A stretch of DNA of 64,000 nucleotides from an uncultured Acidimicrobiia bacterium. GTDB taxonomy: Bacteria; Actinomycetota; Acidimicrobiia; Acidimicrobiales; AC-14. The stretch lies in assembly GCA_963836205.1 (NCBI GenBank), contig CAWIIV010000014.1, forward strand, positions 160,001 through 224,000, in the 5' to 3' direction. Positions within the stretch are counted from its first letter, which is position 1, and every line of letters starts with the position of its first letter. Made by a program: the position numbers and the translations under genes. Below, piece by piece: positions 11,009 through 16,455 of the stretch. The notes below the pieces were generated by a model. That model worked only from the letters and a program-made list of their open reading frames with translations. It was not told the DNA's origin and ran no database searches.

Positions 11009-11567
11009 TTACCGTCCCGGGAGGAGGCGCTCGACGTACTTGGCGATGAGGTCGAACTCGAGGTTCACCCGGTCGCCCGGCCGGCGGCCGCCCAGCGTGG
11101 TGACCTCGGCCGTGTGGGGGATGACGGCCACGGTGAACCCTTCGTCGGTCAAGTCAACCACCGTCAGGCTGACTCCGTCGACCGAGATCGACCCCTTCTC
11201 CACCAGGTAGCGGGTGTGGGGGCTGGCCACGCCCAGGTGGGGGGCGGCGCTGGTGATCCGGCCCACCGCGTCGACGTGGCCCTGGACCAGGTGTCCGCCG
11301 AGGCGGCCGTCGAGGCGGAGGGGTCGTTCGAGGTTGACCGGGTCGCCCGGCCGGAGGTCGCCGAGAGTGGTGCGGGAGAGGGTCTCGTCGACCACGTCGG
11401 CCGACCAGGTGGTGGGGGTGAGGTCGACCACGGTGAGGCAACAGCCGTTGACGGCGATGGAGTCGCCCAGGTGGGTACCGTCGAGGACGACGGCCGCCTC
11501 GAAGCGTGAAGCGGTGGTCGTGGCGCTGGCGGAGGCGGCCCCGTTCCTCGATCAGGCCGGTGAACAC
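11009..11567 (-). CDS. ribE: Riboflavin synthase (apparent frameshift near 11503)
   Basis: VFTGLIEE start in one frame; [13 protein letters not shown]...[10 protein letters not shown]...VNLE in another. Confidence 0.92.
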
Positions 11568-12592
11568 GTTGGCTCCAGCTCGATGCGCAGATCGTCGCCC
11601 AGGCGGGTGACGGACACGATGCGGCCCCGCCACACGTCGTCGATGGTGGCCGCGCCGGGGCCGGCGAGGAGGGGACGGCCGTCGTCGCCGCCGGCCAGGG
11701 CGGGGGCGAGGTAGATCACGTAGCGGTCGACCAGCCCCGCCCGGTGGAACTCGCCGGCCACGGTGGGCCCGCCCTCGACCAGGACCTGGAGGGCGCCGAG
11801 GCCGCCGAGGTGGTCGAGGATCGGGCCGAGTTCGCCTTCGAGCTCGAGCGCGGGATGGACCTTGGCGCCCTCGGGGGCGTGGCCGAGGACGACCCGGAGG
11901 GGGTCCGTGCCGGCGACGTGGCGGACGGTGAGGGACGGGTCGTCGGCCCGGACGGTGCCGGCGCCGACGATGACGGCGTCGCTCTCGGCCCGGAGGCGGT
12001 GGGCGTCGGCCCGGGCCGCCTCGCCGGTGATCCACCGGCTGGAGCCGTCGGCGGCGGCGGTGCGCCCGTCGAGGGTGGCGGCCAGCTTGAGGACCACGTA
12101 GGGCCGGCCGGTGGTGCGGTGCCTGAGGTAGGGGGCGAGCTGGGCCCGCACCTCGTCGGCCCGGAGGCCGACGTCGACCTGGATGCCGGCTGACCGGAGC
12201 CGGGCGATACCGGCCCCCCGCACGCTGGGGTCGGGGTCCTCGATGGCGACGACCACCCGGGCGATGTCGGCGGCGATGATGGCGTCGGCGCACGGCGGGG
12301 TGCGGCCGAAGTGGGAGCACGGCTCGAGGGTCGTGTAGAGGGTGGCCCGTTCGGCGTGGGTGCCGGCCGCGTCGAGGGCGACGACCTCGGCGTGGTACCC
12401 GCCCGGGGGCTGGGTGGCCCCCTCGTAGCCGCCCGGCTCGATCACGCACCCCACCCACGGGTTGGGCGACGTGGACGTCCGCACTCCTGCCGCCAGGGCG
12501 ATGGCCCGGTCCATGGCCGCCTCGTCGCCGTCACGGGCCGGGTCATGTCGGTCGAGTGTGCGGAAATGTACGAAATGTGTACGTTCTCGCAC
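11552..12592 (-). CDS. ribD: Riboflavin deaminase/reductase (start uncertain, possibly ATG near 12514)
   Basis: SPNPWVGCVI, HAEVVAL, TLEPCSHFGRTPPC, KLAATLDG and VEGGPT motifs. Confidence 0.93.
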   Translation of the reverse strand: MRERTHFVHFRTLDRHDPARDGDEAAMDRAIALAAGVRTSTSPNPWVGCVIEPGGYEGATQPPGGYHAEVVALDAAGTHAERATLYTTLEPCSHFGRTPPCADAIIAADIARVVVAIEDPDPSVRGAGIARLRSAGIQVDVGLRADEVRAQLAPYLRHRTTGRPYVVLKLAATLDGRTAAADGSSRWITGEAARADAHRLRAESDAVIVGAGTVRADDPSLTVRHVAGTDPLRVVLGHAPEGAKVHPALELEGELGPILDHLGGLGALQVLVEGGPTVAGEFHRAGLVDRYVIYLAPALAGGDDGRPLLAGPGAATIDDVWRGRIVSVTRLGDDLRIELEPTCSPA

Positions 12593-12600
12593 ACTCGACC
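12550..12600. repeat. 51-bp palindromic hairpin
   Basis: Perfect 13-bp arms GGTCGAGTGTGCG / CGCACACTCGACC with further imperfect inner pairing. Confidence 0.85.
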
Positions 12601-12613
12601 TGGTGGGGGGCGG

Positions 12614-13090
12614 TCACGGGTGCTCCGTGGGGCGGCCGGCGAGGAGCTCGAGGGCGTGGGGCAGGACGTCGAGGACGGCCTCGAGGGTCTCCACCGACCC
12701 GGCCGTCGACCCCGGGGTGTTGAGGACGATGGCGGTGCCGACGGTGCCCGCCGCGGCCCGGGACAGGCGGCCCTTGTCGGGGTTGGTCGCCCGCATGGCC
12801 TCGGCCAGGCCGGGGGCGTGGCGGTCGAGGACGGCGACGGTGCCCTCGGGCGTGAGGTCGCGGGGTCCGAAGCCGGTGCCGCCGGTAGTAACCACCAGCC
12901 CCGCGAACCCGGCGGTGAGGCGGCGGAGGGCGTCGGCCACCGAATCGGTGCCGTCGGCCACGACCTCGTGGCTGACCACGTCGTAGCCGGCGGCCGTCAG
13001 CCGCTCGACCAGGGCCGCGCCCGACTTGTCCTGCCGGGTGCCGCCGACCACGCCGTCGGAGACGGTCAGCACCTTGGCCTGGAGGGTCAT
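12614..13090 (-). CDS. MogA/MoaB family molybdenum cofactor biosynthesis protein (present ATG lies at the intron 3' end; original GTG at 15029-15027)
   Basis: VLTVSD, DKSG, VVTTGGTGFGPRDLTPE and LNTPGS motifs. Confidence 0.92.
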   Translation of the reverse strand: MTLQAKVLTVSDGVVGGTRQDKSGAALVERLTAAGYDVVSHEVVADGTDSVADALRRLTAGFAGLVVTTGGTGFGPRDLTPEGTVAVLDRHAPGLAEAMRATNPDKGRLSRAAAGTVGTAIVLNTPGSTAGSVETLEAVLDVLPHALELLAGRPTEHP

Positions 13091-13096
13091 TGGTTG

Positions 13097-13198
13097 TCAG
13101 GGGCGCGCCGCTCGCTGACGAGCACGTTTCCCCCTCCCCCTTTCGATTCCGTGCGTGCGGTTTTCCCGCACACGGCTCACCGATGGTCTTCTGGACAT
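13097..13198 (-). CDS. 33-aa mini-ORF spanning intron domains V-VI (MSRRPSVSRVRENRTHGIERGRGKRARQRAARP)
   Basis: ATG 2 nt after the RT stop; TGA 6 nt before the mogA ATG; translation not demonstrated. Confidence 0.35.
   Translation of the reverse strand: MSRRPSVSRVRENRTHGIERGRGKRARQRAARP
13145..13178 (-). ncRNA. Group II intron catalytic domain V
   Basis: AGC triad, TGCGG-GAAAA-CCGCA upper stem-loop, CG bulge. Confidence 0.9.
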
Positions 13199-13200
13199 GG

Positions 13201-14541
13201 TTACGCAGCCTTCGGGTAACGGATGGTGCCCATGAGCTGGTGCAGGCCCTGGTCGTGGAACCAGGCGTGCGTCCAACGCTCGGCCTGGCCGGCTCGCAGG
13301 TTGCGGCCCCGCTTCTTGATCAAGAGGCGCTTGAGCCGCCACACGACGTGCCGGTCGAGGGAGACGAACTTGTCGGCCGCGTTCCCGGTGCGGAAGTAGT
13401 TGCCCCATCCCCGAAGGAACAGGTTGAGGTCGTCGATCACGTCCTCCAACTCCAAACCGAGCCGGCTCCGACCGGTGAGGGCCTTGATTCGCAGTCGTGC
13501 CCGCTTCATGGACCGCTGTGACGGCCACCGGTGCAGGTAGTAGCGGACGATGCGCCGCTGCTCCCACAGGCGACCCGACATGCGGGCGTGAAGGTGACAG
13601 CCCAGGAAGTCGAAGCCCTCCTTGCCCTCCCGAAGATCGACCACGCGGGTCTTGTCCGGGTGCAGGCTCAGACCGAGGTCGCCCAACATGGCGGCTGCCC
13701 GCAATTGAGCTTCATCGGCTTGTTCCCGGGTCGTGCACAACACCACGAAGTCGTCCGCGTAGCGGACGAGCTCGCCGGTGCCGGACTCGGCCCAGGACCG
13801 GTCGAAGGCGTGCAGGTAGACGTTGGCCAGCAGCGGGGAGATGACCCCGCCCTGGGGCGTGCCCGTGACCGTCTCGGAGCGCACCCCCTCGACCAGCACC
13901 CCTGCACGCAGCCACTGGCGGATGAGCTTGAGCACCCGCCGGTCCGAGACGCGCCGTTCGACCTCGACCAGGAGGCGGTCGTGGTCGATCTGGCCGAAGA
14001 AGTCGCGGATGTCGGCCTCGAAGACGAACTGCCGTCCTCGGGGGAACGCCACCCGGATGGCTTCCAGGGCGTCGGTGGCCGAGCGCTTCGGTCGGAAACC
14101 GAAGCTGGTCGGCAGGAAGTCGGCCTCGAAGATGGGCTCGAGGACGATCTTGGCTGCCGCCTGGCACACCCGGTCGCGCACGGTGGGGATGCCCAGGGGC
14201 CGCATCCGGCCGTCGGGCTTGGGGATCTCCACCCGGCGCACAGGTGCCGGGCGGTAGTTGCCTGCACGGAGGTCACGGGAAAGCTCGTCGAGCATGCGCC
14301 CGACCCCGTAGTCCTCCACCGCCTCCAGGGTCAGACGATCGACCCCGGCGGCGCCACGATTGGCTCGGACCCGCCTCCACGCCTCCCACAGGACGTCACT
14401 CCGGTGGATGCGGTCGTACAGGGCGTGGAAGCGGCGACCCGGAGACTGCTTGGCCGCAGCCCATAGCCGGTTCTGGAGTTTTCGCACGTTGTCGACGGGC
14501 GTCTGCCCGGCGGGGGATTTGGACCGGGCGGTCCCGGCCAT
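13201..14541 (-). CDS. ltrA: Group II intron reverse transcriptase/maturase, no C-terminal endonuclease domain
   Basis: GAAGVD, IPKPDGRMRPLGIPTVRDR, GTPQGGVISPLLAN, YADD, FDFLG and LRGWGNYF; ends soon after domain X; start chosen at ATG 14541. Confidence 0.95.
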   Translation of the reverse strand: MAGTARSKSPAGQTPVDNVRKLQNRLWAAAKQSPGRRFHALYDRIHRSDVLWEAWRRVRANRGAAGVDRLTLEAVEDYGVGRMLDELSRDLRAGNYRPAPVRRVEIPKPDGRMRPLGIPTVRDRVCQAAAKIVLEPIFEADFLPTSFGFRPKRSATDALEAIRVAFPRGRQFVFEADIRDFFGQIDHDRLLVEVERRVSDRRVLKLIRQWLRAGVLVEGVRSETVTGTPQGGVISPLLANVYLHAFDRSWAESGTGELVRYADDFVVLCTTREQADEAQLRAAAMLGDLGLSLHPDKTRVVDLREGKEGFDFLGCHLHARMSGRLWEQRRIVRYYLHRWPSQRSMKRARLRIKALTGRSRLGLELEDVIDDLNLFLRGWGNYFRTGNAADKFVSLDRHVVWRLKRLLIKKRGRNLRAGQAERWTHAWFHDQGLHQLMGTIRYPKAA

Positions 14542-15036
14542 GCCCTTGTGCTTACCCCCATCGTCGGCGTGACCAAAGTCGGGGCCCTTCCCGCCGGCTG
14601 GCGGTACTACGACCCCGTCGGACTCCCGCTGCGCTCCGCTCGATTTCACCACTGGCTTATACGAGCGGTCTTTGCTGACGAGGCTGCGCAGACGGGTCTC
14701 TCCCCTTCCGAACCTGACCTTGCGTACGTGCCGCTCCCCATACCCCGGGGGGACCCGACCAGGGGCATTCCGGAACGCCAGTCGGTCGGACGTGGGCCTT
14801 GGCCGTGACATGAGCGGCTCGGCTCCCCCGTTGTACATCTGACGAGGCTGCAGGACTCACGCCTGGTGGCGCTACGGCCCGCACGCTTGCTCCCTCCGAA
14901 GAGGCTCTTGACGCCCCGCTCAGCCCGCCGCCTCTCGGCGACGAACCGGGGCCTGCTACCGGGCTCTCCGGCGATTACCCGGGCGGGACTCACACCCGCT
15001 GGTCTGGTCCAGCTTCGAGGACGCACCACGGCCCCG

Positions 15037-15042
15037 ATGGTA
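15037..15042 (-). promoter_or_regulatory. Putative -10 element (TACCAT) of a leaderless mogA/intron transcript
   Basis: TANNNT hexamer 7 nt before the GTG at 15029, the same geometry as at mihF, aroC, priA and the ArsR gene. Confidence 0.55.
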
Positions 15043-15072
15043 GGTGCCCGATCGTTTGCGACGGCTCGGCGG

Positions 15073-15949
15073 TCACGTCCCCAGGCGTTCGCCCGGCTGG
15101 AGGCGGGCCCCGTTGCGCCAGGCGGCGGCCGGCTGCGCGCCCTTTCCCTCCGGTCGCACCTCCACCAGGGTGAGCGCCCCTCCCCCGCCGGTGCCCACGT
15201 CGAGGGTGGACGGGTCGAGCTCGCCCGCGGCCAGCCCCCGGCCCTCGACCGCGGCCAACGACGCCCGGGGCACGAGGAGTCGCCTGCCCCGGAACGTCGT
15301 CCACGCCTGGCCCAACCGCACCACCCGGTGAAGGTGCTCGGCCGACCGTGTCCAGTCGAGGTGGTGCTCCTCGGGTTCGATCTTGGCCGCGTAGGTGGTC
15401 TCCCCGACCTGGGGCGTCGGATTCCGGCAGGCCCTCGGCCAGCAGGCGCACGAGCAGTTCCGTCCCCTCGGCCGACAGCGCCGTCCGCAGCTCGTCGAGG
15501 GTGGCGTCGGGGCCGATCGGGTGCTCGACCGACGCGTAGACGGGGCCGGTGTCGAGTCCCTCCTCCAGGGCCATGACGCACACTCCCGTGACGTCGTCGC
15601 CGGCGAGGATGGCTCGCTCCACCGGCGCCGCCCCCCGCCAGCGGGGCAGGAGGGAGAAGTGGAGGTTCACCATGGGCAGGGCGTCGAGGACGTGGGGCTT
15701 GATCAGCCGGCCGTAGGCGACGACCACGCCCAGCTCGGCACCGACGCCGAGCACGTCGTCGACCTTGTCGGTGACGGGCAGGCCGAGCTCGCTGGCGGCC
15801 GCCTTCACCGGGCTGGGCAGCAGGGCACCACCCCGTCCCCGGCGCCGGTCGGGACGGCTCACCACCAGGGCGACGTCGTGGCCCGCGTCGACCAGCGCCC
15901 GTAGCGGGCCCACGGCGACCTCGGGCGTCCCCAGGAACGCCAGCCGCAC
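15073..15949 (-). CDS. fmt: Methionyl-tRNA formyltransferase (apparent frameshift near 15421)
   Basis: VRLAFLGTPE, VVAYG, NLHFSLLPRWRGAAP and LDTGP; C-terminus PQVGETTYAAKI...VRPEGK is in another frame. Confidence 0.93.
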
Positions 15950-16455
15950 TAGACGCCGGCGATGCCGAGGGTGCGCTGGCGCAGGGCGCGCATGGCCTGC
16001 TTGCGCTGGACCGGGTCGAGCCGCTCCAGCAGCAGGATGCCGTCGAGGTGGTCGACCTCGTGCTGGAACATGCGGCCCAGGAGCTCGTCGCCCTCGATGG
16101 TGAGCGGCTTGCCGTCGACGTCGAACCCGGTGAGCAGCACCTGGCTGGGGCGCAGGATCGGCCAGTGGAGGTCGGGCACCGACAGGCAGCCCTCGACGTA
16201 CTCCCACTCCCCGTGGTGGTTGGTGAGGGTGGGGTTGACCACGATCCCCCAACCCGCCCCGTCCTGGATGTCGTAGACGAACATCCGCTTCTGGATGCCG
16301 ATCTGCGGTGCGGCCAGGCCCACGCCGGGCGCCTCGTACATGGTCTCCAGCATGTCGTCGGCCAGTCGCCGGAGGTCGGCGTCGAACTCGGTGACCTCCA
16401 AGGCGGGCTGCCGGAGGACGGGGTCGCCAAACGTGCGGATGGGAAAGAGAGCCAT
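15949..16455 (-). CDS. def: Peptide deformylase
   Basis: GVGLAAPQIG, EGCLS and QHEVDHLDG motifs. Confidence 0.97.
   Translation of the reverse strand: MALFPIRTFGDPVLRQPALEVTEFDADLRRLADDMLETMYEAPGVGLAAPQIGIQKRMFVYDIQDGAGWGIVVNPTLTNHHGEWEYVEGCLSVPDLHWPILRPSQVLLTGFDVDGKPLTIEGDELLGRMFQHEVDHLDGILLLERLDPVQRKQAMRALRQRTLGIAGV

Follow-up and report, generated by a model that had tools for sequence, protein, structure and literature searches.

How does a mobile ribozyme come to lie exactly between the first and the second codon of a gene? In a 64,000-nucleotide (nt) stretch of contig CAWIIV010000014.1 from an uncultured Acidimicrobiia bacterium (the window, to whose full length all positions refer), a group II intron on the minus strand separates the GTG start codon of a MoCF_biosynth gene from its codon 2. 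Group II introns are known to find their targets through long base pairing peculiar to each intron or, in the case of class IIC, through a hairpin in the DNA. An earlier look at the letters of the window (here called the sequence-only reading) had pointed to a domain I stem-loop whose CAU can pair with AUG or GUG, proposed this loop as exon-binding site 1 (EBS1) and seen in it an RNA-level mechanism for start-codon targeting. Comparison with relatives of the intron leads us to conclude, with good confidence, that this loop serves as EBS1 in a mobile group II intron that lacks an endonuclease and comes from a lineage specialized on gene starts, and that its targets are most likely leaderless genes. 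This would be a third way of targeting, in which exon-binding sites that are trimmed and partly frozen read a generic gene-start signature consisting of a -10 box, a spacer and a start codon.

Relatives were gathered by a scan based on the intron-encoded protein (IEP), with one genome per species, which returned 590 related stretches; the best 80 of these 590, at 49-90% identity and from many phyla, were used. Cultivable carriers are represented by Embleya sp. NBC_00896, Saccharopolyspora hattusasensis, Sorangium sp. So ce176 and Pelomonas dachongensis, among others, and none of the conclusions depends on genomes flagged as unpublished. Sufficient upstream DNA was available for 76 of the 80, and together with the window copy and seven further copies from its own genome they gave 84 aligned rows. 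Rows were assigned to the family if their first five intron bases matched [GU][UC]G[CU]G at the aligned column and their exon had at least 20 nt, which retained 65 of 84 rows, 57 of them relatives from other genomes. The 19 rows left out were L054 and L069, with exons of just 5-6 nt that are nevertheless ATG-ended in both, L028 and L038, in which an insertion displaces the 5' or 3' part, and an outgroup of 15 distant relatives (L083, L086, L088, L090-L096, L098-L101 and L103). The insertion in L028 places about 0.8 kb between the intron's 5' 330 nt and its remainder, and that in L038 places about 2 kb between the stop of the IEP gene and domains V-VI; each is possibly a nested element.

The EBS1 loop and the host start codon

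The domain I hairpin has the sequence that the earlier reading gave it, with the minus-strand parts GCC (14823-14821), GCCG (14818-14815), loop CUCAUGUCA (14814-14806), CGGC (14805-14802) and GGC (14798-14796). It is present in the minimum-free-energy (MFE) fold of the intron's first 482 nt, and the RNAalifold consensus of 32 homologues is exactly this hairpin, (((..((((.........))))...))), with 7 pairs. Three of the 7 pairs have compensatory changes, in one to three sequences, and the remaining pairs are nearly invariant.

Comparison across the 65 rows supports the loop as the EBS1 of domain I, in a 4-bp duplex with exon positions -1 to -4. Loop bases C14812 and A14811 are invariant (65/65), and position 14810 is U in 62 rows and C in 3; all three CAC loops stand at GTG, as do 8 of the 62 CAU loops. 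The fourth base, 14809, is variable (G 48, U 10, A 5, C 2) and pairs with exon -4 in 62 of 65 rows, against 40.9 expected under independence, with a loop G always facing an exon C; an unbiased scan of all intron columns returned 14809 as the best partner of exon -4. A fixed CAU beside a neighbour that covaries with the exon is the pattern that the sequence-only reading had asked of the relatives. It had also named what would speak against it, an EBS1 placed elsewhere or a CAU not conserved; EBS1 is placed where it was proposed, and CAU is conserved. In the outgroup, the homologous loop pairs with each intron's own unrelated exon, over 6 bp in L091, 6 bp in L086 and 5 bp in L092, none of these three exons offering a start codon, and over 4 bp in L096.

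The duplex is shorter than had been suggested. Five of six pairs between CAUGUC (14812-14807) and the 5' exon end GCCGUG (15032-15027, directly before GUGCG at 15026) are indeed possible in this copy, and those at -1 to -4 are the ones that the relatives support; exon -5 is paired in 28 of 65 rows (27.4 expected), -6 in 33 (33.1) and -7 in 17 (14.8), which is chance level, and EBS1 pairs at these three positions were rejected. Pairing of EBS1 with the intron's own terminal AUG was likewise rejected, as a terminal GUG occurs in just one of the three CAC lineages. The likeness of CAU to the initiator anticodon stands as an analogy only, the comparisons linking CAU to neither tRNA nor ribosome.

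What CAU faces is, in nearly every row, a start codon. The last triplet of the 5' exon is ATG (52), GTG (11), TTG (1) or ATT (1), so that 63 of 65 rows have ATG or GTG. Eight copies of the intron are found in the window's own genome, two of them 100% identical, one more cut by a contig end and five forming a 90%-identity subfamily; all eight are preceded by ATG (6) or GTG (2), and all seven complete copies end in ...ACCAATG, beyond which the sequences diverge. At the window locus, seven same-genus genomes are intron-free, and in them codon 2 of the MoCF_biosynth gene comes immediately after one such triplet, GTG in six genomes and ATG in one. Six of these seven empty sites read TAC[CG]AT, 6-8 nt, GTG/ATG, and the seventh has CACGAT. 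The L004 locus has the same intron-free layout, with the hexamer kept, in 6 of 6 same-genus genomes. Because of these intron-free orthologous sites we take the 5' triplet to be the start codon of the host gene, its only one, as the earlier reading of CAU as a reader of AUG or GUG had implied, and the 3' ATG to have come with the intron. Several copies in one genome and precise empty sites at two loci point to a mobile element. Downstream, 52 of 59 rows (88%) have a 3' exon whose in-phase frame stays open over 60 codons or more, against 22 and 31 in the other two frames. The family thus described seems to be a group II intron lineage spread over many bacterial phyla and sited just after the start codons of seemingly leaderless genes.

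The upstream hexamer, EBS2 and EBS3

Ahead of the start codon the exons share a second feature, a TAnnnT hexamer found in 63 of 65 rows. It starts at -15 (38), -16 (21) or -17 (4), that is, 6-8 nt before the start codon, and other TAnnnT hexamers between -60 and -18 number only 9 in the 65 rows. The distance differs between copies of one intron (L003 at -16, L004 at -15), and the two exceptions are L002 (TAGCGA) and L073 (GACAAT). The canonical spacing of a -10 box to its transcription start matches this 6-8 nt layout if transcription begins at the start codon, and the hexamer with its start codon looks like a leaderless gene start, the hexamer being a candidate promoter element. Since the invariant TA, T and RTG at 6-8 nt correspond to a -10 box whose transcription start coincides with a start codon, leaderless genes would most likely be the preferred targets. 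Across the window's own genome, TAnnnT-N6-8-RTG occurs at 917 sites, against 301-443 at other spacings, and an open reading frame (ORF) of at least 100 codons follows 66% of these sites, against 29-47% where the spacing differs; starts of the leaderless type are thus a common feature of this genome. The hexamer stands at just 416 of 72,452 C[AG]TG sites in the genome, so that EBS1 alone is insufficient for site choice, and 7 of the 8 intron copies lie at such hexamer-bearing sites.

Part of the hexamer is matched by the intron RNA. An EBS2-like segment, N-A-N-N-N, was compared with the exon in 64 rows (L030, in which the anchor pattern was missed, was left out) and with 1000 shuffles. Its first base pairs with the base after the hexamer in 50 of 64 rows (shuffle mean 32.0), its third with hexamer position 5 in 60 (33.8) and its fourth with position 4 in 43 (25.0), values that 0 shuffles reach in each case; the second base, A, faces the final T of the hexamer in 63 of 64 rows, both being invariant. 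The fifth base pairs with position 3 in 31 rows (25.6), which 66 shuffles reach. The leading TA of the hexamer is unpaired with the intron RNA (7 and 4 of 64 rows), and may be recognized by something else. Outgroup introns have a classical EBS2 at the homologous place, with 7 of 7 bp in L092 and 5 bp in L091.

The first base of the 3' exon is variable (G 23, A 15, C 13, T 4; n=55), and its best partner among all intron columns is U14740, paired in 54 of 55 rows against 25.7 expected. By this covariation the contact is of the EBS3-IBS3 type (IBS, intron-binding site), not of the delta type, and position 14740 lies in what we take to be the coordination loop. The sequence-only reading had assigned this role to the U preceding CAU. 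That delta-type pair was rejected, the U being kept in 63 of 65 rows while exon +1 varies, and the partner of exon +1 is U14740.

Because the EBS3-IBS3 covariation sets the first base of the 3' exon, the 3' splice site is fixed after ...CCAAUG. An alternative with both splice sites 3 nt upstream, which would put the RTG into the intron and the 3' ATG into the exon, was rejected, since the triplet ahead of identical intron copies can be either GTG or ATG whereas the 3' one is always ATG, and since the empty site carries GTG. The product would be unchanged by a shift of 1 or 2 nt, and the registers of EBS1 and EBS3 favour zero shift.

On invasion of DNA, three RNA segments of domain I would pair with the sense strand: EBS2 (N-A-N-N-N, 14839-14835) with the 3' half of the TAnnnT hexamer and the next base, EBS1 (C-A-Y-N, 14812-14809) with the start codon and the base ahead of it, and EBS3 (U14740) with the first base of codon 2. 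By these three pairings the intron would land exactly between the start codon and codon 2. If transcription begins at the start codon, the 5' exon in RNA would consist of AUG or GUG only, and splicing would then use the three CAU pairs and EBS3, with EBS2 reserved for the targeting of DNA. In the spliced RNA, start codon and codon 2 would again stand side by side. Dispensability of EBS2 for splicing is reported, for class E and F introns, in PMC3753933.

Intron parts, open frame and terminal AUG

The coordinates of all features are collected in Table 1. The 5' part of the intron, 487 nt up to the IEP gene, begins with GUGCG (15026-15022, minus strand), which fits GUGYG, and has its EBS1 215 nt from the 5' end. 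Rfam model RF02003 (group-II-D1D4-4) matches 14867-15001 with 91.1 bits (gathering score 49, E 8.5e-19). The domain V/VI model RF00029 gives 30.5 bits, under its gathering score of 40 (E 1.3e-4), with domain V aligning well and domain VI poorly. Judged by eye, the branch-point A is probably 13094, six bases from the 3' end. In the IEP, a Pfam search found RVT_1 (E 2.3e-36) and GIIM (E 6.3e-16), no other family passing the curated cut-offs and no endonuclease or HNH domain being found; its closest solved proteins are the IIC reverse transcriptases 6AR1 (1.6e-61) and 7UIM (3.1e-57).

Table 1 Features of the intron and its insertion site, with window positions and the basis of each assignment
Feature	Positions	Strand	Basis
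Exon hexamer TACCAT (15042-15037) and C15036	15036-15042	minus	TAnnnT, 7 nt before start codon, -10-box-like
IBS2, CAUC	15039-15036	minus	Pairs with EBS2-like segment
IBS1, CGUG: host start codon GTG (15029-15027) and preceding base	15027-15030	minus	Intron-free orthologues
Frame from host GTG, 127 codons into ribozyme, stop 14648-14646	14646-15029	minus	ORF reading
Whole group II intron, 1939 nt, GUGCG...CAACCAAUG	13088-15026	minus	Copy ends and empty orthologous sites
EBS2-like segment GAUGU, directly after conserved CUCGUCA	14835-14839	minus	Covariation against 1000 shuffles
EBS1 hairpin GCC-GA-GCCG-CUCAUGUCA-CGGC-CAA-GGC	14796-14823	minus	MFE fold and RNAalifold consensus
EBS1 proper, CAUG (CAU with start codon, G with exon -4)	14809-14812	minus	Covariation, 65 rows
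EBS3, U	14740	minus	Best partner of exon +1, column scan
IEP, 446 aa from own ATG, in domain IV	13201-14541	minus	Pfam RVT_1 and GIIM
Domain V, 34-nt helix	13145-13178	minus	Read from sequence
Domain VI	13088-13141	minus	By eye: conserved ...CUACCAAUG tail and G-run able to pair with it
Intron's own terminal AUG	13088-13090	minus	...CCAAUG, or GUG in 3, in 55/59 aligned relatives
IBS3, A: first base of 3' exon and of codon 2 (ACC), MoCF_biosynth gene	13087	minus	Column scan, empty sites
MoCF_biosynth gene	12614-13087	minus	Pfam PF00994, E 6.1e-26

The reading frame set by the host start codon continues into the intron. Among the 65 rows it runs almost stop-free through ribozyme domains I-III, being open for at least 100 codons in 59 rows against none in each of the other two frames, with a median open length of 161 codons against 17 and 3, and with 24 stops within the first 126 codons against 192 and 268. 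It reaches the stop of the reverse transcriptase, after 617-680 codons, in 23 of the 57 relatives from other genomes, and these 23, of which the Sorangium copy L047 is an example, have 13 different 5'-part lengths, each a multiple of three. In five relatives its stop falls 3 nt before the IEP's own ATG, and in the window's clade it closes after 121-127 codons. The internal ATG behind a purine-rich stretch is conserved in all members, and either start is conceivable for the IEP. The GC content by codon position in the host-start frame is flat (0.68, 0.66, 0.65), with no coding-like composition.

At the other end, the 59 aligned rows close in CUACCAAUG (48), CAACCAAUG (2), ...GUG (3) or single variants (3), the remaining 3 being misaligned. 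The terminal AUG leaves together with the intron, as judged from the empty sites and from the L005 site inside a histidine kinase gene. Since the intron ends in an AUG of its own, the host ORF would retain a start codon even if the intron were unspliced.

Competing readings and known group II introns

Several observations weigh against a lineage specialized on leaderless gene starts. The L005 copy (G000 contig 17) is inside a histidine kinase gene, not at a gene start: its upstream exon encodes HAMP and HisKA domains, with the ATPase domain HATPase_c interrupted at 82 of 111 positions, and its downstream exon continues the kinase motif with no extra Met. The site mimics the usual target, TATCGT, 7 nt and GTG, the GTG being a Val codon. 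L002, with its TAGCGA hexamer, is followed by an 18-codon frame and no gene start. Two 5' exons end in a triplet other than ATG or GTG (TTG and ATT, one site each), and the exon -4 pair is broken at three sites, L046, L073 and L082. The intron ends are also unorthodox. A G at group II intron position 1 is near-universal, and 22 of the 65 family members start with U (UUGCG or UCGCG), among them L003-L007, L024 and others, including five seemingly intact copies in the window's own genome; the 3' end, ...CCAAUG, has UG in place of the usual AY. A two-hexamer promoter scan upstream of the intron found 0 candidates. Because the last T of the hexamer pairs with the invariant A of EBS2, the intron's own rule could create part of the likeness to a -10 box. 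Finally, none of the contigs from four soil or rhizosphere metatranscriptome runs spans exon, intron and exon; the exons are unmatched in them, and intron ends are not readable from them. Their cover is limited to about 13131-14978 and to the level of the intron family, at 90-99% likeness to the intron and 90-95% likeness to relatives; soils commonly contain RNA or DNA of the family.

The sites inside a gene and outside any gene, L005 and L002, carry all or most of the motif, as would be expected if recognition were by sequence only, a ribonucleoprotein reading TA (through its protein), nnnTn (EBS2) and NRTG (EBS1) in any DNA, with the likeness to leaderless promoters incidental. The pairing of EBS2 with the hexamer would then explain the T by the intron itself, and, as an ORF of at least 100 codons follows 66% of all places in the genome that fit the motif, such a rule would mostly land at gene starts. 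We consider this unlikely, because the distance between hexamer and start varies by 1-2 nt even among copies of one intron, a flexibility that promoters usually show and group II targets usually do not; in addition, the conserved letters of the target are exactly the conserved letters of the -10 box, the hexamer is kept in intron-free orthologues, and an in-phase ORF follows 88% of sites. Flexible spacing of 6-8 nt would also suit an intron that enters the non-template strand while RNA polymerase keeps it single-stranded in the open complex of a leaderless promoter, the -10 box acting via the polymerase. Endonuclease-less group II introns need access to single strands, and the IEP has no endonuclease domain; the TA is conserved yet unpaired with RNA, and IBS1 would occupy promoter positions -1 to +3. 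This route appears quite improbable to us, as EBS2 pairs with hexamer positions 4-6, which the sigma factor holds in the open complex and for which it would compete, and as the in-gene site L005 requires no promoter.

Hardly any weight attaches to the view that the hairpin is a structural element, or that CAU fits the start codon by chance in this one copy, with EBS1 elsewhere. Its stem is almost invariant, which makes stem covariation alone weak evidence, but the fourth loop base covaries with exon -4 (62/65), all CAC loops stand at GTG, outgroup loops pair over 5-6 bp with their own exons, and the unbiased column scan picks this loop. Spread by reverse splicing into leaderless mRNA is disfavoured, since the covarying exon -4 and the hexamer would lie outside that RNA. 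In its fullest form, the specialist on leaderless genes would read a -10 box and start codon, have a three-base 5' exon, capture the host start for its IEP and give the host a spare AUG; as a whole, this fuller picture is tentative, and we put it forward as a possibility.

The closest precedent for the target is the IIB1 lineage, which PMC12584367 places at initiation or termination codons with reference to Michel et al. 2007. Its members include Avi.groEL and EcKTE56.groEL, and PMC12584367 calls its process of colonization 'currently unknown'. Both that lineage (IIB1/CL1) and the present one are bacterial group II introns specialized on start or stop codons of protein genes. They differ in that here the 5' part measures 487 nt up to the IEP gene and the distance from the 5' end to EBS1 is 215 nt, and in that the CL1 reverse transcriptase has a C-terminal endonuclease domain whereas the IEP here has RVT_1 and GIIM only.

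With group IIC the family shares a short EBS1-IBS1 duplex, a reverse transcriptase without an endonuclease domain and a target that is a generic genome feature rather than one long sequence. Group IIC introns insert after terminators or attC hairpins, however, whereas here no terminator-like hairpin lies upstream (a scan of 14950-15250 for terminator-like sites found 0) and the exons carry TAnnnT; the covarying EBS2, the 34-nt domain V and a target at the gene start, not the gene end, are further differences. Classical IIB introns (RmInt1, EcI5) have EBS1, EBS2 and EBS3 at homologous places of domain I, and the close outgroup relatives use these contacts in the classical manner, with 5-7 bp each. 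Here, by contrast, EBS1 is cut to 4 nt, three of them fixed, EBS2, in which the A is fixed, comprises 4-5 nt and is separated from IBS1 by 5-7 nt rather than adjoining it, and the intron ends in AUG. In the yeast mitochondrial introns aI1 and aI2 the protein is read in a frame that enters from the upstream exon, crosses ribozyme domains I-III and leads into the reverse transcriptase, as in this family. The family differs in that the exon gives the start codon only, the host is bacterial, and the frame, unbroken in 23 of 57 relatives, is interrupted in the window's clade.

In a full-text literature search neither this family nor any group II intron at a leaderless start came up, the IIB1 lineage being the only precedent found; earlier cataloguing of the family is possible. 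If our account holds, it would supply a concrete mechanism for the colonization of start codons, the process that PMC12584367 calls unknown for another lineage. It also raises the questions of whether a group II ribozyme can splice with a three-base 5' exon, how leaderless translation and ribozyme folding share one RNA, and what role the intron's own AUG plays. The rule being simple, carriers of such introns could help to predict leaderless genes in uncultured bacteria, and a four-base EBS1 with a fixed CAU would lend itself naturally to designs that place cargo immediately after start codons.

Two further observations concern the neighbourhood of the intron in the window. Upstream of it, a formyltransferase-like gene changes frame near a C run at 15400-15420 on the minus strand, its N-terminal part lying in the frame of ORF 14990-16252 and its C-terminal part in that of ORF 15073-15324, which may reflect a frameshift or an assembly error. 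Downstream, between the MoCF_biosynth gene and a deaminase/reductase-like ORF (11552-12592), there is a perfect 12-bp inverted repeat, GTCGAGTGTGCG ... CGCACACTCGAC (12552-12600, minus strand), with an AT-rich centre and no Rfam match at that place.
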